DNA of 63,610 nt from IMG/VR virus record IMGVR_UViG_3300010048_000010, positions 1 through 63,610 of that record; one strand, 5' to 3'. Below the pieces are notes generated by a model, which saw nothing but the letters and a program-made list of their open reading frames with translations, ran no database searches and was not told where the DNA came from. The position numbers were made by a program, and so were the translations under genes. Positions 30,888 to 58,121 of this stretch are shown in pieces. Source of the DNA: a virus (lineage: Duplodnaviria; Caudoviricetes). Numbering within the stretch: position 1 is the stretch's first letter; each line of letters begins with the position of its first letter.

Positions 30888-31155
30888 TTTTCCGCCCCTT
30901 CAAATCGTTTAAGAGATTCCATTATGAGGGGATTATAGAAATCTAGCAACATAGGGAAAACCCTAATAGACGAAGTTTCTAAAATCCTATATTCGCGCGC
31001 AGCGCGCATTATTCCTTTCTCCAATATCATCCTATTAGATTTTGCTACTGATAGATATTCTTCATGTGCGAGCATTCGATATTTTCTTTAATATTCTTCT
31101 CATGCCAAGCGCAAGGGGCGCAAGGCAAAATCCGATCATTCAGGAGAGAATCAAA

Positions 31156-31722
31156 ATGGCAAATCGTCGCAATTCCCGCGCAGCGCAAGCCGCTGCAAAT
31201 ATGGCTCAATCCGCCGAAGCGCAAGCCGATGCAATCGTGAATCAAGCCGCGCTTGAAAATGCGCAAGCAATCGAAGCCGCTGAGCAAGCAATCGAAGCGC
31301 ATCAAGCCGAAGCCGCTGAGCAAGCGCCGCAAGCCGCGCAATTCATCGGCCCTTGGCCTTATGCTCAGCCGCAAATCGAAGCGCCTAGCGCCGATGATAT
31401 CGCCGCTGAAGAAAGCGCCGAAGCGGAATTCCAGCGCCTGCAACGCGAAGCCGATGCAAAGATCGAAGCGGCGATCATCGCGGCTCAGAATGCGCCTAGC
31501 GCGCGCAGCGGCGAGAAAAAGCCGTACATCCGTCAATCGTCGATCATTCGTCCGACGAAAGCCGTATGGGCAATCGCGGATGCAATGATCGCGCATGCGG
31601 ATGAAAACGAGTTGCCCCGGCCATCGCGCGGCGAAATTATCGCCCGATGCATCGCGCAAGGGATTGCAAGCGGTACGAGTGCGACTCAGTACCAGGCATG
31701 GAAAAAAGCTATGGGATATTAA
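31156..31722 (+). CDS. Ala/Gln/Glu-rich protein with C-terminal putative DNA-binding domain (family copy 1)
   Basis: CAGGAG RBS, ATG 31156; KAVWAIAD...GIASGTSATQYQAWKK. Confidence 0.7.
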   Translation: MANRRNSRAAQAAANMAQSAEAQADAIVNQAALENAQAIEAAEQAIEAHQAEAAEQAPQAAQFIGPWPYAQPQIEAPSADDIAAEESAEAEFQRLQREADAKIEAAIIAAQNAPSARSGEKKPYIRQSSIIRPTKAVWAIADAMIAHADENELPRPSRGEIIARCIAQGIASGTSATQYQAWKKAMGY

Positions 31723-48193: not shown

Positions 48194-48272
48194 GCACCAA
48201 AAAACTCTTGAGTTAACTAGGAAATTCTTGGATAATATAATCAATCAAAACGATTTCTCAGGAGGGAATCAA

Positions 48273-48944
48273 ATGTATGTTCTAATCGATACAAAAGAAA
48301 TGCGGATGGTTGCCGCTGCCCACAAGCGTAGCCACATGGAACTCATCCGCCTGGTGGATTTTGCAGACCTCGACGATTGCACATGCAACGCGAATGACGG
48401 CGGAAGCTGGACGCATTTCACACGCGAGCAGATGGCACAGCTGTACAAGAATACGAGCGGCTTGCAGGAAGCACTGGAGTATGGTGAAGCAATCGAACAG
48501 CTTCGCAGCTACGTGCTGACCTGGTCCGACTATCCGAAGTCGGAAGAACAGCTGGAAGATGAACTGCGCGATATGCAAGGGGAAGATGACATTCCCAATG
48601 ATGACCCGATCAAGCAACAGATCGCGGCCAACCAGGCAATGCGCAAGGCACATCAAGAGACCATCGCGATTGTTGAGGAAGCCAATGCGCGCGAGGCGCA
48701 TAAACCGGCGGCTGAACGCGCGGTGAAGCCCGCAGCAGAAGCCAAGCCGAAAGTGACACGAAGCGCACCGATGCAAGGCGTGACCAAGCGCGTATGGGAA
48801 ATTGCGGACGCCTGCTATGACCCGAACGTAGAACTGAAAGCGACGCGCAAGAAGATCATGGAGTTGGCTGAACAAGAAGGCATCCACCCGGGTACGGCAG
48901 CGACGCAGTACGGAAAATGGAAGGCCGAGCGAGGCTACGCGTGA
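48273..48944 (+). CDS. protein with C-terminal putative DNA-binding domain (family copy 2)
   Basis: CAGGAGG RBS; KRVWEIAD...GIHPGTAATQYGKWK; promoter-like TTGAGT-17 nt-GATAAT at 48208-48236. Confidence 0.7.
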   Translation: MYVLIDTKEMRMVAAAHKRSHMELIRLVDFADLDDCTCNANDGGSWTHFTREQMAQLYKNTSGLQEALEYGEAIEQLRSYVLTWSDYPKSEEQLEDELRDMQGEDDIPNDDPIKQQIAANQAMRKAHQETIAIVEEANAREAHKPAAERAVKPAAEAKPKVTRSAPMQGVTKRVWEIADACYDPNVELKATRKKIMELAEQEGIHPGTAATQYGKWKAERGYA

Positions 48945-49909: not shown

Positions 49910-50530
49910 ATGGCTAAACGCTCAGCAGCCGCAAAGAAACTTGAACCGGAGGACAATATGGAAGCAGCACAAACACACGATCCTCAAGACCCGAACGAAC
50001 CGGGTGATCCTGTCGATCCGCAACCGAACGGCGACGAACCTGGCCAAGAACAGCCGCAAGGCGAACAACTTCCGGCCCGTGATTTCGACGCCGAAGAAGC
50101 CGAACTGAAAGCGAAACTGGCCGCGCTGAAGTCGGACAAGAAGGCCGCAAACAAAGCCAACGGCACCAAAGCACCCAAGGCCAAGAAAGCACCTGTTGAA
50201 CGACCGCCCAAGGATGAAGCAAACGGCGTCACGCGTCCCGGCACTGGCGTCACGAAACAGGTATGGGATACCGCAGACATGCTGTCGCAGCGTCTCGGTA
50301 CCTACGTCGACCGCGCTACTCTGACCGAAGTGTTGAGCGGCAAAGTCGAAATCGGTACGATCCATACCCAGTACGGTCGCTGGAGGAAGTACTATGGCTT
50401 GACTGAAACAGCCGACCAACGGAAGGCACGCATGGATCAAATCCGCGCAGCCAAGCTTGAACAGATCGGCGTTCAACCGGGGCAAGAACCGGCACCGCAG
50501 GGAGAAGCACAGCAAGGCGCTACGCAATAG
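49910..50530 (+). CDS. protein with putative DNA-binding domain (family copy 3)
   Basis: CAGGAG RBS; KQVWDTAD...GTIHTQYGRWRK. Confidence 0.7.
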   Translation: MAKRSAAAKKLEPEDNMEAAQTHDPQDPNEPGDPVDPQPNGDEPGQEQPQGEQLPARDFDAEEAELKAKLAALKSDKKAANKANGTKAPKAKKAPVERPPKDEANGVTRPGTGVTKQVWDTADMLSQRLGTYVDRATLTEVLSGKVEIGTIHTQYGRWRKYYGLTETADQRKARMDQIRAAKLEQIGVQPGQEPAPQGEAQQGATQ

Positions 50531-50541
50531 CGCTTTTCAAG

Positions 50542-50565
50542 CCTATTCTATTCTGCTAGAATAGG
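50542..50565 (+). promoter_or_regulatory. extended -10 promoter inside a palindrome; likely drives the ncRNA array and Ro60
   Basis: TGcTAGAAT (50554-50562) within the inverted repeat CCTATTCTA/TAGAATAGG. Confidence 0.6.
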
Positions 50566-50568
50566 ATT

Positions 50569-50786
50569 TATCGGTGAGGGATTCATAAGTTGCGCGGGGC
50601 GCACACCTCACCGATACTGAACTCGATGCTCCCCCTCGCGGAGGTTCGCCACCGCCAGTGCATCAGCCAAAAGGGAAGGTGGATACCTGCGGCGCTCAAG
50701 TGCATATGGGTCAGTCGTGCTGAGCCGGGCAACCGGAGATAGCAAACAATGCATAGTCACCCCCTCGGGGGTTTATACCGAGCAGA
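50569..50786 (+). ncRNA. structured leader RNA of unknown class
   Basis: 11-bp stem TATCGGTGAGG/CCTCACCGATA, nested pseudoknot-like region 50619-50664, CCGG-GCAA-CCGG GNRA hairpin, ACCCC-CTCG-GGGGT; no ORF. Confidence 0.5.
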
Positions 50787-50790
50787 TTTT

Positions 50791-50922
50791 GCCGTGGTGT
50801 AGTTATCAGATACTTCGCTTGGGGCGACGATGTTTTAGGTTCGAGTCCTAATGCTCCCCCAATCAATGGGGAGTATAGCTCAATGGTAGAGCACGTACTT
50901 TCTGGTAGCGTTTGTTCCCGGC
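50791..50922 (+). ncRNA. Y-RNA-like cassette 1 carrying a complete permuted tRNA (anticodon TGG)
   Basis: Scaffold GCCG-TGGTG...TTCC-CGGC; cargo order anticodon arm, T arm TTAGG-TTCGAGT-CCTAA, closed acceptor stem, D arm GCTC-AATGGTA-GAGC. Confidence 0.85.
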
Positions 50923-50931
50923 TTGATTTCT

Positions 50932-51020
50932 GGCATGGTGAAGTGACCCGATACTTCGGTTAATACTCTCGTAAGAGCGTAGTGGTTCGAATCCACAATC
51001 GGTTCACGATTATTCCTGCC
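50932..51020 (+). ncRNA. Y-RNA-like cassette 2 (reduced cargo with T arm)
   Basis: GGCA-TGGTG...TTCC-TGCC; inner stem GTGACCCGAT/ATCGGTTCAC; GTGG-TTCGAAT-CCAC. Confidence 0.8.
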
Positions 51021-51030
51021 AATAGTTTTT

Positions 51031-51159
51031 GGCGTGGTGTAGTGAACAGTTCCTCCGACTGCTAATCGGGAAGCCCGAGTTCGACTCTCGGCGGGGCCGC
51101 ATCAATGGCCCCGTAGTGTAACGGTAGCACTCCGTGTCCTGTTTGCGATTGTTCCCGCC
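51031..51159 (+). ncRNA. Y-RNA-like cassette 3 carrying a complete permuted tRNA (anticodon GCT)
   Basis: GGCG-TGGTG...TTCC-CGCC; CCGA-CTGCTAA-TCGG, CCGAG-TTCGACT-CTCGG, CGGGGCC/GGCCCCG, GTGT-AACGGTA-GCAC. Confidence 0.85.
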
Positions 51160-51169
51160 TCACCATCAA

Positions 51170-51239
51170 GCCGTGGTGAAGAGTTCGATTACATCGCTAC
51201 CTCCCTGTTGCGCAAACATCGACCTCGTTTGTTCCCGGC
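51170..51239 (+). ncRNA. Y-RNA-like cassette 4 (minimal cargo)
   Basis: GCCG-TGGTG...TTCC-CGGC; inner stem GAGTTCGAT/ATCGACCTC. Confidence 0.75.
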
Positions 51240-51249
51240 TATCGACTAT

Positions 51250-51338
51250 GCGGTGGTGATTTGGACTGATACATCGCGCTGAAACGCTGGCGGTCTGCGA
51301 AGCCGCTGAAGTACCTTCAGTCTGAAGATGTTCCCCGC
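51250..51338 (+). ncRNA. Y-RNA-like cassette 5 (two hairpins with anticodon-like loops)
   Basis: GCGG-TGGTG...TTCC-CCGC; inner stem TTGGACTGA/TCAGTCTGA. Confidence 0.75.
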
Positions 51339-52826: not shown

Positions 52827-53543
52827 TTGAAACAAGTCAATAGACAGACTCCAGTCAAGGCAGATCGCCACGATGACGGCAGTCTACTCATCCACAGCAT
52901 CTTCTTGACTCTACAAGGCGAAGGCCCACACGTGGGCCAACCCGCCATCTTTGTACGCCTAGCTGGATGCAATATCCAGTGCCCCGGATGCGATACTGAG
53001 TATACCGGGAATTCTCTCAAGCGTCTTTACTTCAACGAGCTAACGGATCAAGTTCTGCGCTACGCGCATGGTCCGCACAAGCCGATGATTGTTATCACTG
53101 GCGGCGAACCGTTGCGCCAGAACATTATTCCGTTCGTCAACTGGCTCAGCAAACACGGTTTCTGCGTGCAGATAGAAACCAATGGCACACTTGGCATCGA
53201 CAAAACTGGGCTATCCGATCCGGCCCGGTATAATCTCGAAATCGTTTGCAGTCCCAAGACTGGAAAAGTCGTGGAGTCACTGCACGAGTTCATCATCGCC
53301 TACAAATATGTGGTCAACGAAGGAGATATCGATGGTCAAGACGGATTGCCTATGGGGGTGTTGGGCTTACATGTTCGACCTGCTCGCCCGCATGATGGCT
53401 ACCATAAAAAAGTTTATGTTCAACCCGCTGATGAATATGATCCTATTCAGAACCAACGGAATTTAGATGCCGCAGTTCAATCGTGTCTGCTGTTTGGGCA
53501 TACTCTCTGCATGCAAATCCACAAGTACATCAACATGCCATAG
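52827..53543 (+). CDS. queE: 7-carboxy-7-deazaguanine synthase (radical SAM)
   Basis: IF.TLQGEG...G.PAIFVRLAGCNIQCPGCDT, ITGGEPL, IETNGT, CSPK, QIHK. Confidence 0.93.
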   Translation: MKQVNRQTPVKADRHDDGSLLIHSIFLTLQGEGPHVGQPAIFVRLAGCNIQCPGCDTEYTGNSLKRLYFNELTDQVLRYAHGPHKPMIVITGGEPLRQNIIPFVNWLSKHGFCVQIETNGTLGIDKTGLSDPARYNLEIVCSPKTGKVVESLHEFIIAYKYVVNEGDIDGQDGLPMGVLGLHVRPARPHDGYHKKVYVQPADEYDPIQNQRNLDAAVQSCLLFGHTLCMQIHKYINMP

Positions 53544-53551
53544 GAGTTATC

Positions 53552-54220
53552 ATGGGCAACAAGGCGGTAGTAATGCTATCTGGCGGTCAGGATTCAACGA
53601 CCGTACTTGGTAAGGCACTCTCCGATGGGTTCGAGTGCTACGCTATCGGATTCGATTACGGCCAACGCCACAAGATCGAACTGTTGCAAGCACAGAAGAT
53701 CGCAGAAGACCTCGGCGTCTCATACGAACTGGTACGTCTTGAAGCGCTCGGCAAAATGGTGACCACAGGATTGACGGAATCGACTGGCGACCTGAATGAG
53801 CGCCACCCGAGGTACACGGATTTGCCAGCATCGTTCGTACCCAATCGCAACGCGCTATTCCTCACTTTCGCACATGCTTATGCGCAAGAAATTGGGGCGC
53901 GCATGGTGTGGGGTGGCATGTGCCAGACTGACTATAGCGGTTACCCGGATTGCCGACGCGTATTCATCGACGCGATGCAACATGCGTTGAATGTAGGCTA
54001 TCGCACTGATGTGGTCTTCATCACTCCGCTGATGGACTTGACCAAGGCACAGACTTGGAAGATGGCCGAAGATGTTGGCGTTCTCGAAACCGTTATCACA
54101 GAAACGAATACTTGCTACAACGGTATTCGCGATGAGTTGCACGAATGGGGCTATGGCTGCGGCAACTGCCCCGCGTGCAAAATCCGCGCGAAAGGATGGA
54201 ACGAGTACCGGGGAATGTGA
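53552..54220 (+). CDS. queC: 7-cyano-7-deazaguanine (preQ0) synthase
   Basis: LSGGQDS, FDYGQRH, VPNRN, DYSGYPDCR, TCY...CGNCPAC. Confidence 0.95.
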   Translation: MGNKAVVMLSGGQDSTTVLGKALSDGFECYAIGFDYGQRHKIELLQAQKIAEDLGVSYELVRLEALGKMVTTGLTESTGDLNERHPRYTDLPASFVPNRNALFLTFAHAYAQEIGARMVWGGMCQTDYSGYPDCRRVFIDAMQHALNVGYRTDVVFITPLMDLTKAQTWKMAEDVGVLETVITETNTCYNGIRDELHEWGYGCGNCPACKIRAKGWNEYRGM

Positions 54221-54663
54221 TGTGGCAGATTAAAAAACATTACGGCCATGAACTAGGACTTAGCGCGTGCTTTCGCCAGTGGCGCGCTGACTCCCATTGC
54301 CGACACCTACATGGCTATGCACTGGCGTTCACCTTCACTTTCGAATGCGAGACGCTGAACGATAAACAATGGGTAGTAGACTTCGGCGGCTTGGCTGGAC
54401 TGAAGCAACGGCTAGCGCATGCATTTGACCACAGGCTGTGCGTTGCAGAAGATGACCCTTGTCTAATCCACTTCTTGAACCTATCCGGCGAGGATTGTGC
54501 CAACCCTATTGTGCTTCCACATGTGGGCTGCGAACGCTTCGCGGAGTACGCTTTCGGACTGGCTCAGGAAGAACTGGAGAAGTTGAGCGTCAATCCGCGC
54601 GTGCGCCTTATCTCTTGCGAATGTGCCGAGCATGGCGCGAACTCAGCGGTGTATATACCATGA
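54220..54663 (+). CDS. queD: 6-carboxytetrahydropterin synthase
   Basis: FRQWRADSHC..LHGY, WVVDFG, FDH, EHGANSA. Confidence 0.9.
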   Translation: MWQIKKHYGHELGLSACFRQWRADSHCRHLHGYALAFTFTFECETLNDKQWVVDFGGLAGLKQRLAHAFDHRLCVAEDDPCLIHFLNLSGEDCANPIVLPHVGCERFAEYAFGLAQEELEKLSVNPRVRLISCECAEHGANSAVYIP

Positions 54664-55364
54664 ACGAAGACTGGTTCGAAACTCCTCATCTGACAGCGGG
54701 TGACCAAAATGAAAAGACGCTACAGAACTCGGGAAAGCACCATTGTGCTAAGTGCGGTACCGGATACGCTGGACCGGAGTGCGAGCCGCCACCACAGAAT
54801 TCAATCGACCGAGAGAGTATTATCAGGGATTTGTTGCGCTTCATTGTTGGCGAGAACCCAGACCGGCCAGGTCTACAGGAGACGCCAAGTCGTGTGGTCA
54901 AGGCATGGGAGCATTGGACGGGTGGATATAAGGTCGACACAAAGGCGCTACTCAAATCGTTTGAGGACGGAGCCGACAAGTACGATGAAATGGTGGTTCG
55001 TAAAGGCATTCCTATTTACTCTGTCTGTGAGCATCATTTGTGTCCTATCGTGGGAACTTGTACAATTGCTTATATCCCTGTCGGTCACATTGTGGGACTA
55101 TCTAAACTCGATCGACTGGCTGACGCTTACGCCAGACGGCTTCAAGTACAAGAAAGGCTAACGAACCAGATTGCAGACGACTTGTTTCATAACGTGCAGC
55201 CGCTAGGCGTTGGTGTATATATCAACGCGCGGCACTTCTGTATTGAAACTCGAGGTGTCTGTCATCCGCAATCTGATACGATAACATGCGCGCTACGCGG
55301 TGTAATGCGCAGCGATCCGGCGGCACGGAGCGAATTTTTAGCTCTAGTAAACAATGGATCGTAA
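54660..55364 (+). CDS. folE: GTP cyclohydrolase I
   Basis: RPGL.ETP.RV, CEHH, GLSKL.R, RRLQVQERLT.QIA, H.C...RGV. Confidence 0.95.
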   Translation: MNEDWFETPHLTAGDQNEKTLQNSGKHHCAKCGTGYAGPECEPPPQNSIDRESIIRDLLRFIVGENPDRPGLQETPSRVVKAWEHWTGGYKVDTKALLKSFEDGADKYDEMVVRKGIPIYSVCEHHLCPIVGTCTIAYIPVGHIVGLSKLDRLADAYARRLQVQERLTNQIADDLFHNVQPLGVGVYINARHFCIETRGVCHPQSDTITCALRGVMRSDPAARSEFLALVNNGS

Positions 55365-55449
55365 CCAAATCATTCCCTAAAGGCTAGAAAATTATGAGAT
55401 AATTTAGGGGTCAGGCGAAATTCGCCCGGCACATTTAAAAGGATAAACA

Positions 55450-57098
55450 ATGCATCGTTGTAAATGGAACGGCTGTCATCGTACCATCGCGAGCACGTTG
55501 TACATGTGCGCAGAGCACTGGTTCAGATTGCCTAGAGCACTGCGTAACGAACTGTGGGATGGATACCGCAGGGGGATCACCTCGAACCAGTACGTAGCAG
55601 CAGACGAACAGATCCAAGACTGGGTCGCTCTACATCATCCCGAACCTATTTCAAAGGAGCAATAAATGGGTCTCATTCCCAATTTAATTACTCATTGGTG
55701 GACTGAATGGCAACAGTTCTGGTGGGACTTCTTCATCCCCCGGAACCATGACGTCGACAATCCGTTGGACGAAACTACCGAGTAAGCATTAGCCGCCACA
55801 TGGAGTTGTGAATATGAGCAGCACACCCCATACCTCCGCACCGCGAGGCAAACTGGTTCATATCGAACTCCGTGATGGCGGCACCATTGAAGGCAAATTT
55901 CTGGAACGGACAGGGAAGTTCGTTGTCCTCGAACAATGTAGGATTCCTGCCCGACTGATCGGTAAATTTTACATCGTAAAGGCGCAGCCATGCACTACAT
56001 CACAGTCTTCGACGAACACGAAAACCACCTCGGATGGATCGACGCCCAAGGAAAACTGACCACAGACCCATTGCAGAGCGCGGGGTTCAGCGACAAAGAC
56101 ACTGCGTGGGATATGTGCAGCCAACTGGAAAGCGGAAACCAGACCTGGTATACCCAACTCGTTGAGAACCAAGGAGACAAAGAGTAATGGCTAAGCATCG
56201 GGACTTTGTAGAGCAACTGTTGGATGCGCCCATGAATGTCGCTGCAAAGTTGCTGAGCGGCGGTTTGCCACCGGGCTATGGCTTCGCCTTACTCGTGTTT
56301 GGGATGGACACGAACGAAGGATACATGAACTACATTTCCAACGCCAGCAGGGAGGACATGATCGCAGCACTGAAAGAACTGATCGGAAACTTTGAGGGTC
56401 GCACGTTCGATCCACCAAGGAGCAAACAATGAAGATCATCGACATGCAATTCGTTGGTGGCGATTTGTTCGGACTGGGTGATGATGGCACAGTCTATATT
56501 TATCGCCAAGCCCGCGCACCGTTTGTTGGTCGCGAACCCGTACCAATCAAATCCGCACCTTGCCCGATGCCGGAACAATCACCAATTGTGGGCCGAAAAG
56601 AGTATCTGGCTATGATGGAAAAACAAATGATCGCATCCAATACTCCGTGGCGGCGACCAGAAGCTTGTTACGAAGAACCAGTCGCTCTCGGTCAAATACT
56701 TGGTCAGCCATACCAAGTAGTCAATCAGTGCGAAGTCCAATGGCAAGATACTTACATCGACGGTTGCACTGCTGGGTGGGAACCGTTATCGATGAGTATC
56801 AGCAAGCCGGTTCCGCACCCGAAAGACCCGACCAAAGCCGAACGGAGCTAACCACATGATCCGCGCCCGAATGTCCGATGGCCGTTTCCTGTTTGGAATT
56901 GATGCGGTCAATATCTTCAAGTTGATGGATGGACAACCAATCAAAGTCGACTTGAAGGAAATGGGCGGCAGTGACTCATTCGTCATTGTTTTTGGACCTA
57001 CTTATGCCGACATTATCGAAGACATTGCCAAAGCAGTCGGCACGACTCCAGAAGAACTTTTAAGTCACGCGCAAGAGATTCCGAAAAATAGCGCCTAG
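55450..57098 (+). other. cluster of small hypothetical genes (55450, 55814, 55990, 56187, 56429, 56856)
   Basis: Co-oriented short ORFs with RBSs and overlaps. Confidence 0.6.
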
Positions 57099-57206
57099 TG
57101 ACCGGCTTGGCCTTTCTATCTAATGCTTTGCATTAGATAGATAGCGCCAAGCCCGCCACCAACCGAATACCAGCTTGCCACTTGATGTTTGCTATATAAT
57201 TGATAT

Positions 57207-58121
57207 ATGAATCTCTACATCGCGGGCCTATTCACGGCCAACATTGCACGCGGCTCGACAGCATTCGGTAAACTCAACGAGCGCGAACAACAAGGCATCG
57301 ACTCCATCGATTATCATCTGGAGTCGTACCACTATGTCAAAGACAAAAATACCACTGAACGTATTCGTAACAGCGGCATTCAAGTTTTCATCGACTCCGG
57401 CGCATTCTCGGCGTATACACAAGGAGTCGAAATTGATCTTCCGTCCTACTGCCAATGGCTGCAACAGAATGCAGACCTGGTTAAGGTGGAAGATGGGGTG
57501 TTCATGGCGTCGGTCCTAGACGGCATTGGCGACCCGCTCAAGACGTGGCAGAACCAACGGTACATGGAATCACTTGGCGTTAAACCACTCCCATGCTTTC
57601 ACTGGGGTGAGGATGAACGCTATCTGGAGTACTACCTCGCCAACTATGATTATATCACAATTGGTGGCTTGGTCCCTGTGGCTAAGCCGCAACAGCGAAT
57701 TTGGTTGGACCGTATATGGGATAAGTATTTGGTGGATGGCGCTGGCCGTCCTAAGATACGAGTGCACGCGTTCGGGATGACTAATCCTAATCTAATGGAG
57801 CGATATCCTTGGTGGTCAGTAGATAGTTCAAGTTGGGTTCAAATCAGTGCTCACGGGAACATATTCTATGATAACAAGCCGCTCAACTGTTCGTCGGACT
57901 CTCCCCTGCGAAAAGTCCACAATCAACATCTGGATACTCTACCAGAGATTATCACCTCCTTCATTGACAGTCGTATCATCGCGGACGGTTATGATCCCGA
58001 CCGCATTCGTACCATCACCTATTCCCGTTGGGCATACTGCGCAGACAAGTATGCCGAATTCGGTCGCAATATGGACCCTCATAAAACGTTCATAGCACAC
58101 CAGCAGGAGCTATTTTCATGA
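57207..58121 (+). CDS. dpdA: TGT-fold 7-deazaguanine transglycosylase (DpdA-like)
   Basis: IDSGAFS, LD.IGD, P.FH.GE, IGGLV, VHAFG, SVDSSSW; co-occurs with folE/queD/queE/queC. Confidence 0.75.
   Translation: MNLYIAGLFTANIARGSTAFGKLNEREQQGIDSIDYHLESYHYVKDKNTTERIRNSGIQVFIDSGAFSAYTQGVEIDLPSYCQWLQQNADLVKVEDGVFMASVLDGIGDPLKTWQNQRYMESLGVKPLPCFHWGEDERYLEYYLANYDYITIGGLVPVAKPQQRIWLDRIWDKYLVDGAGRPKIRVHAFGMTNPNLMERYPWWSVDSSSWVQISAHGNIFYDNKPLNCSSDSPLRKVHNQHLDTLPEIITSFIDSRIIADGYDPDRIRTITYSRWAYCADKYAEFGRNMDPHKTFIAHQQELFS

Follow-up and report, generated by a model that had tools for sequence, protein, structure and literature searches.

Y RNAs of the YrlA class, found in 22 phages in 2014, look like a circularly permuted tRNA according to published descriptions (Chen 2014; Wang 2018) and are recognised in part by a location within about 4 kb of a Ro60/Rsr gene, on the same strand (text of PMC4201824). 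Their hallmark, as set out in the text of PMC4201824 and of 10.1101/312249, is the order T arm, closed acceptor, D arm; both texts also describe a conserved YUAY motif, and the former defines the motif GNCGAAN0-1G. The crystal structure of a YrlA tRNA-like domain is available (PDB 6cu1, as cited in 10.1101/312249). Which partner the tRNA-like head of Y RNAs binds in bacteria and phages has been a question since 2014: in the published view, these RNAs have no anticodon loop, and their conserved contact lies in the elbow where the D and T loops meet. The definition of the class also includes Rsr binding and modification by TruB and DusA.

The stretch analysed here, referred to as the window, comprises the 63,610 nucleotides of IMG/VR record IMGVR_UViG_3300010048_000010, from a soil phage of the Caudoviricetes. 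It carries five tandem Y RNA cassettes upstream of a phage Ro60/Rsr gene, all on the + strand. A first-pass annotation had described positions 50815-50895 as a permuted tRNA. The permuted order of the arms stands, but the segment is, as far as its sequence can tell, the tRNA-shaped head of a YrlA-class Y RNA (cassette 1) and not a gene for a decoding tRNA. Taken as a whole, cassette 1 is likely a phage-encoded YrlA-class Y RNA that works by the mechanism proposed below. The class itself is known; what appears new, relative to the text of the literature, is an anticodon-like arm kept by most relatives.

A Y RNA array upstream of rsr

The product of the gene following the array possesses a TROVE domain (the HEAT-repeat ring) and then a vWA domain, the order that characterises Ro60/Rsr. 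It matches PHROG 850, "RNA-binding protein" (2.2e-39), and the Ro60 of Thermus phage phiLo (PDB 9KOP/9L5Y, E 1.5e-24, residues 31-414). The gene starts 19 nt after the end of the array and 435 nt after the end of cassette 1, on the same strand, which places cassette 1 within the published distance of about 4 kb. All five cassettes (Table 1) share their 5' (GCCGUGGUG-type) and 3' (UGUUCCCGGC-type) ends, and in Xylella phage Usme and Brevundimonas phage Marchewka an array of the same kind likewise precedes the Rsr gene. A regular expression for the closing stem proved too loose (5 false matches elsewhere in the window), and array sizes were not derived from it; a promoter and terminator scan returned nothing above chance. 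A tie to the adjacent 7-deazaguanine genes was considered as a conserved feature and rejected, Xanthomonas and Xylella phages having a lysozyme gene after rsr. Of the sequencing runs listed with this stretch, four are of soil DNA and none of RNA, and their contigs reveal no RNA ends. A second contig in the probable source run shares positions 50787-50849 and 50924-51119 with the window, 78 other letters replacing 50850-50923.

Table 1. Elements of cassette 1, the other cassettes of the array and the rsr gene, in window coordinates.
Feature	Position	Strand	Basis or remark
Cassette 1, complete YrlA-type Y RNA, ~132 nt	50791-50922	+	Bounds from closing helix of minimum-energy fold and closing-stem rule
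Closing bulged helix, 5' strand: GCCG, bulged U50795, GG	50791-50797	+	Pairs with 50917-50922, minimum-energy fold
GGUGUAG, variant of GNCGAAN0-1G, the presumed Ro60/Rsr contact motif	50796-50802	+	
Second stem, 5' strand	50802-50810	+	Pairs with 50901-50909, minimum-energy fold
UACU linker, YUAY-type conserved motif joining Y stem to hairpin	50811-50814	+	
Anticodon-like hairpin UCG/CUUGGGG/CGA (U50815-C-G / C50818-G50824 / C50825-G-A50827)	50815-50827	+	tRNA positions 29-41; read from sequence
CG, tRNA positions 42-43	50828-50829	+	Pairs with positions 27-28 at 50894-50895
Variable loop AUGUU (44-48)	50830-50834	+	U48 able to form Levitt pair with A15
T arm UUAGG/UUCGAGU/CCUAA	50835-50851	+	Sequence
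Closed acceptor-like hairpin, 8 bp: 3' strand 50852-50859, loop CAAUCAAU 50860-50867, 5' strand 50868-50875	50852-50875	+	Sequence
U8-A9 (U50876-A50877), D arm GCUC/AAUGGUA/GAGC (50878-50892), A26 (A50893)	50876-50893	+	Sequence
CG, tRNA positions 27-28	50894-50895	+	Complete the anticodon-like stem from the 3' half
3' linker UACUU, stem 2 3' strand (50901-50909), internal loop, closing helix 3' strand (50917-50922)	50896-50922	+	
Cassette 2, T-arm-only Y RNA, YrlB-like	50932-51020	+	Same 5'/3' closing motifs; fold with GUGG/UUCGAAU/CCAC hairpin
Cassette 3, second YrlA-type Y RNA	51031-51159	+	Rfam YrlA 27.2 bits at 51043-51158
Cassette 3, anticodon-like hairpin, loop CUGCUAA	51056-51068	+	
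Cassette 4, short Y RNA without tRNA-like module	51170-51239	+	Closing motifs
Cassette 5, Y RNA with two small hairpins, without tRNA-like module	51250-51338	+	Closing motifs and fold
rsr, Ro60 orthologue (TROVE plus vWA), 471 aa	51357-52772	+	Pfam TROVE 2.8e-13, VWA_2 5.5e-6

Sequence and covariation show the ends of cassette 1 paired into a bulged helix and a second stem, a handle of the Ro60/Rsr-binding type. Its far end folds as a tRNA body: T arm, closed acceptor-like hairpin and D arm follow one another in the permuted order with tRNA-type conserved bases, and A15 and U48 are suited to the Levitt pair, as tRNA-type tertiary partners. The GGUGUAG of the handle departs from GNCGAAN0-1G at two positions; its stem is present and covarying, and the aligned relatives have GGCGAAG, GGCGUAG or GGUGAAG at this site.

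At gathering thresholds, Rfam gives no match in the whole window, and ARAGORN finds no tRNA gene in it. In a permissive search, the Rfam YrlA model RF02553 spans cassettes 1 and 3 over its full length (for cassette 1: 50806-50924, model 1-114 of 114, E 2.2e-5 in 901 nt), with scores of 33.7 and 27.2 bits, respectively, that fall below its gathering score of 69 bits. Because these values lie far under that score and 9 of 14 control genomes, E. coli among them, likewise give YrlA matches below the threshold, the Rfam match alone proves little. To note, RF02553 is built on hairpin-less, Salmonella-like members, and its consensus closes with a 4-bp stem and lacks a hairpin at that place. The Rfam tRNA model reaches 21.8 bits on cassette 1 (partial match), as compared to its gathering score of 29.

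The relatives surveyed, from phages and Acidobacteriota with Rsr proteins about 50% identical, comprise 171 Rsr loci and 135 tRNA-like cassettes. An alignment-based Rsr scan of IMG/VR recovered such relatives, whereas an IMG/VR scan with a single Rsr protein yielded none; the Rsr searches reported 421 IMG/VR and 538 genome loci. From 77 non-redundant cassettes, RNAalifold recovers the closing stem, stem 2, the T arm, the acceptor hairpin and the D arm, with compensatory changes in 26 of the 29 predicted pairs. In the unfitted MAFFT alignment of these cassettes (A2), 92.6% of the cells pair, against 67.6% after shuffling (a value reached by none of 500 shuffles) and only 38-47% when the partners are slid. 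Pairing amounts to 96.7% in the closing helix (columns 15-21/180-185, both-side changes in 5 of 6 pairs), 91.7% in stem 2 (columns 26-33/163-170, 8 of 8 pairs), 94.5% in the acceptor hairpin (columns 85-90/113-118, 6 of 6 pairs), 100% in the T arm (columns 68-72/80-84) and 97.4% in the D arm (columns 121-124/137-140). The pairs between positions 27-28 and 42-43 (columns 61-62/142-143) are formed in 92.2% of cells, with both-side changes in 21 and 26 sequences; with the register held constant over the whole set of 135 cassettes, 119 pair at 27:43 and 127 at 28:42. Pair 15:48 covaries as well, being G:C in 100 cassettes, A:U in 28 and another combination in 7. A YUAC(U/A)UC-like motif precedes the T arm by no more than 40 nt in 117 of the 135.

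The anticodon-like arm of cassette 1 and its relatives

Ahead of the T arm, cassette 1 exhibits a 3-bp hairpin with the 7-nt loop CUUGGGG ("anticodon" UGG, then G37 and G38), lengthened to a 5-bp stem by two bases 3' of the D arm. Every segment listed for the head in the first-pass annotation is present where it had been placed, and its view that positions 27-28 are supplied by the downstream half is borne out: C50894-G50895 pair with C50828-G50829, and in cassette 1 the 5' bases cannot substitute for them. The five pairs form in cassette 1 only with a split after 28 or 29, and in cassette 3 only with a split at 0, 1 or 2; as these allowed splits overlap there alone, 28|29 is the sole break common to both cassettes, as had been proposed. 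The predicted "break" is the point where the Ro60-binding stem departs from the tRNA-like body. Two details of the same annotation do not generalise. The ATCAAT acceptor linker is shared by cassettes 1 and 3 but occurs in only 2 of the 135 cassettes, and the G-1:C73 pair, taken for a tRNA-His hallmark, is merely the eighth pair of the closed hairpin, this pair being G:C in only 20 of the 61 stems of 8 bp or more.

Across the relatives, 84 of 135 cassettes have an arm with a 5-bp stem and a 7-nt loop; shuffling the upstream 40 nt of each cassette leaves 8.1 on average (maximum 16). With the 28|29 split, 74 cassettes fit at a loop length of 7 nt, as compared to 0-17 at 3-6 or 8-11 nt; the other 10 arms fit 29|30. 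Among the 84 arm-bearing cassettes, Y32 is present in 74, U33 in 79, R37 in 83 and A38 in 71. The 85% non-redundant set gives the arm in 47 of 77 cassettes, with U33 in 45 and R37 in 46 of these 47. Positions 36 and 37 are coupled in a manner that resembles real tRNA loops, U36 being followed by A37 in 46 of 46 cases and G36 by G37 in 20 of 24. Random break points, or a loop keeping neither U33 nor a purine at 37, had been named beforehand as signs against a selected architecture. Neither is seen, and the claim of a selected and conserved architecture, as opposed to a decaying tRNA, holds because the arm is far more frequent than in the shuffled controls and its 7-nt loop, U33/purine-37 and split position are conserved.

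Positions 34-36 are the most variable part of the arm. The 29 triplets found in these homologous arrays include AUU, AUG and UCA; between related cassettes they differ by 0.53 per site, against 0.11-0.24 elsewhere (646 pairs), and at loci with two arms the two triplets differ in 9 of 9. Neutral drift would likewise yield high variability at these positions. Un-permuted in silico, all 84 arm-bearing cassettes are called tRNA by ARAGORN with the expected triplet, a weakly controlled result in that 58-69 of the 84 are still called when the hairpin part is shuffled. Triplet and body were also compared for a match in tRNA identity: Glu-type D arms occur with CUC loops, and since they also occur with CUG and UGG loops, strict identity mimicry is not retained as an explanation. 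A loop pseudoknot gives no signal, the reverse complement of 34-37 being present elsewhere in 24 of 70 cassettes as compared to 26.9 for random words.

The arm is absent from 51 of the 135 cassettes. At the loci with the closest Rsr proteins (L012, L036), the cassette most like cassette 1 has no arm and keeps the AUGUU variable loop and the D arm of cassette 1; a Y RNA can therefore do without the arm. RNAalifold does not predict the hairpin on the mixed set, in which its columns pair in only 61% of cells. In 53 of the 84 arm-bearing cassettes, positions 42-43 have an alternative partner in the conserved UU/UC on the 5' side of the hairpin; with that pairing, the hairpin would be self-contained and would need no split. 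The minimum-energy fold of the whole of cassette 1 omits both the hairpin and the T arm, and the hairpin in isolation favours closing its loop further, by C32:G38 and U33:G37, to a 5-bp stem and a UGG triloop; C32:G38 is unique to cassette 1 among the 84 loops. A pattern search of IMG/VR, with the hairpin stems and variable loop of cassette 1 fixed and the loop free, returned 13 stretches, mostly inside coding sequence. As all 13 are unrelated chance matches, this search provides no close orthologue of cassette 1.

Proposed mechanism and rival explanations

In the reading preferred here, the two bases following the D arm (27-28) would pair with 42-43 and stack on the 3-bp hairpin, in cassette 1 and in about 60% of the relatives, so that the Ro60-binding stem would exit through the nick between 28 and 29 at a three-way junction. 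Transcription of the five cassettes would take place together with rsr or immediately before it, and cleavage at the 9-10-nt spacers would separate them. Each of them would then bind the phage Rsr ring via its GGUGUAG-bearing helix, and the exposed tRNA mimic would engage a host tRNA-binding factor.

Cassette 1 might also be a YrlA-type Y RNA whose hairpin is a "V" stem-loop, or the tolerated anticodon-arm relic of the first tRNA of a dimeric-tRNA ancestor, with a freely drifting triplet. Such a dimeric-tRNA origin has been laid out in the text of 10.1101/312249, and it agrees with the rapid change of 34-36 and with the armless cassettes, which likely include the orthologue of cassette 1. In the native order, moreover, ARAGORN calls a tRNA in 20 of the 135 cassettes, 19 of them arm-bearing, and the Rfam tRNA model scores 27.2 bits at 51031-51099, in cassette 3, which is what descent of the 5' half from a complete tRNA would predict. 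However, a relic would not retain the 7-nt loop together with U33, R37 and A38 at the frequencies observed across a clade of about 50%-identical Rsr proteins, nor is the tRNA-like coupling of 36 and 37 in its favour. A variable arm would directly precede the T stem, whereas here the covarying 42-43 and then a normal 4-5-nt variable loop intervene, and true long-variable-arm hairpins exist as separate elements in the Leu-like cassettes of Brevundimonas and Caulobacter phages. This reading is thus considered unlikely.

A circularly permuted tRNA gene of the kind known in some algae and archaea, whose transcript would be cleaved, closed into a circle or ligated, and opened again to yield a functional tRNA-Pro(UGG), is highly improbable, even though all the tRNA parts are present, un-permuted cassette 1 is called tRNA-Pro by ARAGORN, the window has no tRNA genes of its own and the YrlA of M. 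smegmatis is cut by RNase P and receives CCA (text of 10.1101/312249). The join would fall inside the anticodon stem, between 28 and 29. The acceptor-like stems of the relatives range from 4 to 12 bp and are capped by tetraloops in 67 of 135 cassettes, so that there is no uniform 7-bp acceptor with a free 3' end; the occurrence of the triplets AUU, AUG and UCA also argues against decoding. In every locus examined, the flanks of the head form the Y-RNA handle, conserved and covarying, beside rsr, and neither an RNA ligase nor a kinase is found among the 37 ORFs scanned, a subset of those of the window. It is scarcely credible that cassette 1 is a decayed tRNA or tandem-tRNA pseudogene devoid of function: the silence of ARAGORN and the sub-threshold Rfam tRNA and YrlA scores would suit such a remnant, but the compensatory changes in the consensus pairs make it unlikely and the array form is kept upstream of rsr in distant phages and bacteria.

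For a Y RNA with an anticodon-like arm, the hallmarks retained by most tRNA-like Y RNAs of this Rsr clade (7 nt, U33, purine-37, 36-37 coupling) narrow the search for partners to factors in contact with the anticodon arm. Tentatively, the Rsr-bound mimic may act as a decoy or competing ligand of host enzymes by which this arm is attacked or inspected, for example the anticodon nucleases used in anti-phage defence. Competitive inhibition of an anticodon nuclease has been suggested for YrlA (text of PMC7790460), and phage Bas63 has a Ro60-like protein that counters the Ppl defence (text of PMC11482910). It is as conceivable that the mimic tethers Rsr, and through Rsr an exonuclease such as PNPase, to the tRNA-handling machinery, the Ro60 and Y-like RNAs of phage phiLo being described as binding host PNPase (text of PMC12135203). 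That the arm has another role, or none, is only a little less probable. In a bolder and rather unlikely extension, a large clade of Y RNAs from phages and soil bacteria would be whole-tRNA mimics showing a genuine anticodon arm on Ro60, with a triplet that evolves fastest and differs between paralogues of one array. Their arrays would be isoacceptor-specific decoys or baits, evolving in an arms race with nucleases of defence systems or toxins that cleave tRNA, or with enzymes that modify the anticodon loop. If true, such arrays would represent the long-sought effector logic of YrlA. In databases, cassettes of this type are sometimes annotated as tRNA genes, for example as tRNA-Thr in Xanthomonas phage 10KY502B and as tRNA-Ser in Brevundimonas phage Gurke, and phage tRNA counts are too high as a result.

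Comparison with described Y RNAs and tRNA mimics

Cassette 1 resembles the YrlA of Salmonella Typhimurium and other bacteria and phages, as described in the published texts, in its position next to rsr on the same strand, its end-paired handle, the T/acceptor/D head, the 15:48 pair and the YUAY motif. The solved Salmonella YrlA, however, "lacks the anticodon loop", and its anticodon-stem equivalent continues straight into the handle (text of 10.1101/312249), whereas in cassettes 1 and 3 a 3-bp hairpin with a 7-nt loop branches off. A "V" stem-loop has been noted in many YrlA RNAs and read as a variable arm (text of Chen et al. 2014). It likewise lies between the YUAY motif and the T arm, and is probably the same physical element as the anticodon-like hairpin. 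The text on this stem-loop, as distinct from figures and supplements, mentions neither a 7-nt loop, U33/R37, covarying 27-28:42-43 pairs nor a variable triplet, and the text of the YrlA literature examined, again apart from figures and supplements such as Supplemental Fig. S1 of Chen 2014, does not mention the features of an anticodon-like arm.

Among other Rsr-bound Y RNAs, a potential "anticodon arm" with a 5-bp stem has been noted in Yrn1 of Deinococcus radiodurans (text of PMC4201824). According to the same text, Yrn1 differs by its 6-nt loop, a doubtful D arm, another order of the arms relative to the RNA ends and the absence of a V arm. In Thermus phage phiLo, Yrl1 and Yrl2 are located just upstream of the Ro60 gene (PDB 9KOP, 9L5Y for its product), as in the window; the text of PMC12135203 describes them as stem-bulge-stem RNAs with a CGAA motif and mentions no tRNA-like head.

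Outside the Y RNAs, the permuted tRNA genes of red algae and of one archaeon share the closed acceptor and have ends that meet in the anticodon arm (text of 10.1101/312249). Genes of this kind are marked by flanks that form a bulge-helix-bulge splice motif and depend on a splicing endonuclease and a ligase. They give rise to decoding tRNAs via splicing enzymes, whereas the flanks in the window form a Y-RNA handle with no sign of processing. tmRNA and the TYMV TLS are tRNA-shaped mimics outside decoding, the latter also possessing a mimic of the anticodon domain (text of 10.1101/312249). Both have a free CCA end and are aminoacylated, whereas the acceptor end of cassette 1 is sealed.

The Y RNA array and its Rsr neighbour

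The stretch at 50815-50895 lies in cassette 1, the first of five tandem cassettes located directly 5' of rsr, which encodes an orthologue of Ro60. From the 5' to the 3' end, it is formed by a 3-bp hairpin (loop CUUGGGG), CG, a 5-nt variable stretch, a T arm, an acceptor-like hairpin of 8 bp closed by CAAUCAAU, UA, a D arm, A, and CG. All the parts listed by the first-pass annotation are in place, and the permuted tRNA-like order that it described stands. What it took for a permuted tRNA is, however, a rediscovery of YrlA (cf. PMC4201824, 10.1101/312249), the known class of tRNA-mimicking Y RNAs, of which cassette 1 is a member. ARAGORN finds no tRNA gene in the whole window, and Rfam gives no match there at curated thresholds. 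At permissive thresholds, cassettes 1 and 3 align with the YrlA model (RF02553) over its whole length, scoring 33.7 bits (E 2.2e-5) and 27.2 bits, respectively, where the gathering score is 69; since 9 of 14 control genomes also give sub-threshold matches, this is supporting evidence only. The identity is decided by context, namely the five-cassette array and the adjoining TROVE/vWA gene.

Each of the five cassettes opens with a GCCGUGGUG-type word and closes with a UGUUCCCGGC-type word, which pair with each other into a helix containing a single bulged base; a second stem comes next. The 471-aa ORF harboring the TROVE and vWA domains begins 19 bases past the last cassette; its product, Rsr, matches PHROG 850 and also, with E 1.5e-24, the Thermus phage phiLo Ro60, whose structure is solved. 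The record originates from soil metagenomes and is a complete virus of 63,610 bp (CheckV estimate 100%) with a G+C content of 51%. The genes around the array encode phage replication and recombination functions and a 7-deazaguanine cluster, a gene set typical of phage DNA modification. The proximity of this gene set to rsr is not a conserved feature in Xanthomonas phages.

Two ORFs just upstream of the array and a third elsewhere in the window are of unknown function and have PHROG families 7864 and 18634 in common. The 260-nt non-coding segment 5' of cassette 1 folds into strong hairpins (z = -2.1 for 50531-50680) and includes GATAC and GGTTCG words. The word ATGCTCCCCC, which makes up the acceptor 3' strand in cassette 1 (50851-50860), is repeated in it at 50626-50635. 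This segment may represent a leader or the remnant of a sixth cassette. A second, low-depth contig of the probable source run (X1) matches the 5' part of cassette 1 with 3 differences in 63 nt, as well as cassettes 2-3. Where cassette 1 has its acceptor hairpin, D arm, and 3' handle (50850-50923), this contig carries 78 unrelated letters; a co-occurring relative in which the module has been swapped would account for it.

Features of the array, its surroundings and related cassettes (L-numbers, surveyed Rsr loci)
Feature	Record	Positions	Strand	Remark
Cassette 1	window	50791-50922	+	tandem array, first of five
Cassette 2	window	50932-51020	+	tandem array
Cassette 3	window	51031-51159	+	tandem array
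Cassette 4	window	51170-51239	+	tandem array
Cassette 5	window	51250-51338	+	tandem array, last
7-deazaguanine gene set	window	52827-58121		directly downstream of rsr; radical-SAM QueE-like, QueC, QueD-like, GTP cyclohydrolase I (FolE), queuine tRNA-ribosyltransferase-like (TGT/DpdA-type)
ORFs, PHROG 7864/18634	window	48228-48944, 49910-50530, 31042-31722		function unknown
Non-coding segment	window	50531-50790		5' of cassette 1
Y-RNA cassettes annotated as tRNA	L003; L005	1792-1859; 1769-1843		GenBank records
Leu-type cassettes	L002; L006; L008; L009	2362; 1836; 1668; 1669		Brevundimonas and Caulobacter jumbo phages

Conserved fold of the cassettes

Rsr was found by tblastn in 90 phage records, while alignment-based scans returned 421 relatives in IMG/VR (80 kept) and 538 in GTDB genomes (80 kept, mainly Acidobacteriota), all 47-59% identical to the protein of the window. 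Like arrays lie upstream of rsr in Xylella phage Usme and Brevundimonas phage Marchewka. A script that searched for a T stem of five perfect pairs capped by a TTCRA loop and, after it, a closed hairpin, U8, and a GG-containing D arm identified 135 distinct tRNA-like cassettes in 103 of 171 loci, leaving out L007 (genuine tandem tRNAs) and L011 (the window's own copy); closing stems are recognisable in 112 of them. For 77 cassettes that are non-redundant at 85%, 115-142 nt long and with recognisable closing stems, the consensus fold from RNAalifold includes closing helix, stem 2, T arm, acceptor hairpin, and D arm, and 26 of its 29 pairs show compensatory changes. In the unfitted MAFFT alignment of these cassettes, 92.6% of cells are paired, added helices included, as compared to 67.6% in shuffles (0/500 as high as observed) and 38-47% with slid partners. 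The 15:48 pair is G:C in 100 of the 135 cassettes, A:U in 28, and other in 7; it is A:U in cassette 1. In actinophages Atuin and Neville and in Rhizobium phage TM30 (L176, L178, L174), the Ro60 gene lies within or beside large tRNA clusters, and Y-RNA cassettes are interspersed among genuine tRNAs.

The acceptor stems are 4 to 12 bp long (mode 8) and 67/135 loops are tetraloops, most commonly UUCG, GAAA, and GCAA. The ATCAAT linker, proposed as a shared trait, is indeed present in two cassettes of the window and is not general: these two are the only ones among 135 acceptor hairpins, and it therefore looks like a within-genome trait. The putative G-1:C73 hallmark of tRNA-His has to be abandoned, as the eighth pair is G:C in just 20 of 61 stems of at least 8 bp and therefore carries no histidine signal. 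The acceptor loops of cassettes 1 (50860-50867) and 3 (51099-51105) contain a CA(A)UCAA word that reappears in the spacer separating cassette 3 from cassette 4 (51163-51169); because the 133 other acceptor hairpins surveyed lack ATCAAT, this word may serve as a processing or recognition site specific to the phage.

The anticodon-like arm

An arm of five pairs closing a 7-nt loop, immediately 5' of a 4-5-nt variable loop, is present in 84/135 cassettes when bases 3' of the D arm may supply the first 0-3 bases of its 5' strand; after shuffling of the upstream 40 nt (200 shuffles), the average count is 8.1 and the highest 16. When the 3' half supplies two bases, a 7-nt loop fits 74 cassettes, and loops of 3-6 or 8-11 nt fit 0-17. 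Random break points, or a loop without conserved U33 and purine-37, would have refuted the first-pass annotation, and the homologues show neither: 74 of the 84 arm-bearing cassettes can be split at 28|29 and the remaining 10 only at 29|30; U33 is found in 79/84 and purine-37 in 83/84. Positions 34-36 are occupied by 29 different triplets. In 53/84 the hairpin could be self-contained, since wobble pairing is possible between 42-43 and the conserved UU/UC of the YUACUU linker. In a fixed register with no class assignment, 27:43 is paired in 119/135 and 28:42 in 127/135, as compared to 31-77 in slid registers; in the alignment, this helix is 92.2% paired, both sides being changed in 21 and 26 sequences. 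The loop also displays pyrimidine-32 in 74/84 and A38 in 71/84, U36 being followed by A37 in 46/46 and G36 by G37 in 20/24. The non-redundant set retains the arm in 47/77, with U33 in 45/47 and R37 in 46/47.

Several observations limit this reading. The arm is absent from 51/135 cassettes, which adopt a Salmonella-like form where the halves make a 4-5-bp stem running into the handle. In the two loci whose Rsr proteins are closest (L012 and L036, 58-59% identity), the cassette that most resembles cassette 1 shares its D arm and AUGUU variable loop and has no hairpin. The loop of cassette 1 is itself atypical, the sole one among 84 with C32 and G38. Its hairpin, when folded by itself, favours a UGG triloop on a 5-bp stem; it is not drawn in the minimum-energy fold of the whole cassette, nor is such a hairpin predicted by RNAalifold on the mixed set of 77. 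Drift would also yield variability at 34-36; these positions differ at 0.53 per site versus 0.11-0.24 in all other segments (646 pairs of related arm-bearing cassettes), and the two triplets are unlike each other in all nine loci with two arm-bearing cassettes. The UGG and GCU combination of the window recurs in L005 and L075. Un-permuted in silico, 84/84 are called by ARAGORN as tRNA with the expected triplet, a weak test as 58-69/84 are still called with the hairpin shuffled; in native order, 20/135 are called, 19 of them arm-bearing. The conserved arm geometry and variable triplet are consistent with a putative decoy or bait for enzymes touching the anticodon arm.

In GenBank, some arm-bearing cassettes are listed as genes for tRNA, namely tRNA-Thr in Xanthomonas phage 10KY502B and tRNA-Ser in Brevundimonas phage Gurke. 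Brevundimonas and Caulobacter jumbo phages also have Y-RNA cassettes whose D arm is of the Leu type (GCGGAA..GGTAGACGC) and in which a separate hairpin resembling a long variable arm precedes the T arm; these cassettes have no 7-nt-loop hairpin. They are another flavour of tRNA mimicry within the same arrays.

Relation to described YrlA RNAs

The present analysis establishes the fold, its covariation, and its linkage to rsr. By analogy with the family, Rsr would bind the bulged helix of each Y RNA, the array would be processed at its 9-10-nt spacers, and the tRNA-shaped head may be offered to a tRNA-binding partner. In the YrlA/Y-RNA literature searched, the hairpin before the T arm was not found to be read as a conserved mimic of the anticodon arm, nor were its fixed junction and hypervariable triplet found there; an earlier description may exist elsewhere.

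YrlA RNAs, known from 254 bacteria and 22 phages, are described as encoded at most 4 kb from rsr on the same strand, with a GNCGAAN0-1G motif close to the 5' end, the domain order T, closed "acceptor" stem, D, and a covarying 15:48 pair (Chen et al. 2014, PMC4201824). The structure of the Salmonella YrlA tRNA-like domain has been solved (Wang et al. 2018, bioRxiv 10.1101/312249). On what the head may bind, the literature offers some leads. TROVE proteins of jumbo phages are generally viewed as part of RNA repair (PMC7824862), and phiLo Ro60 with its Y-like RNAs binds the host PNPase (PMC12135203). It has been suggested that YrlA could inhibit an anticodon nuclease competitively (PMC7790460), and the Ro60-like protein of phage Bas63 counters the Ppl defence, its neighbouring "tRNA" genes having been suggested as possible Y RNAs (PMC11482910).
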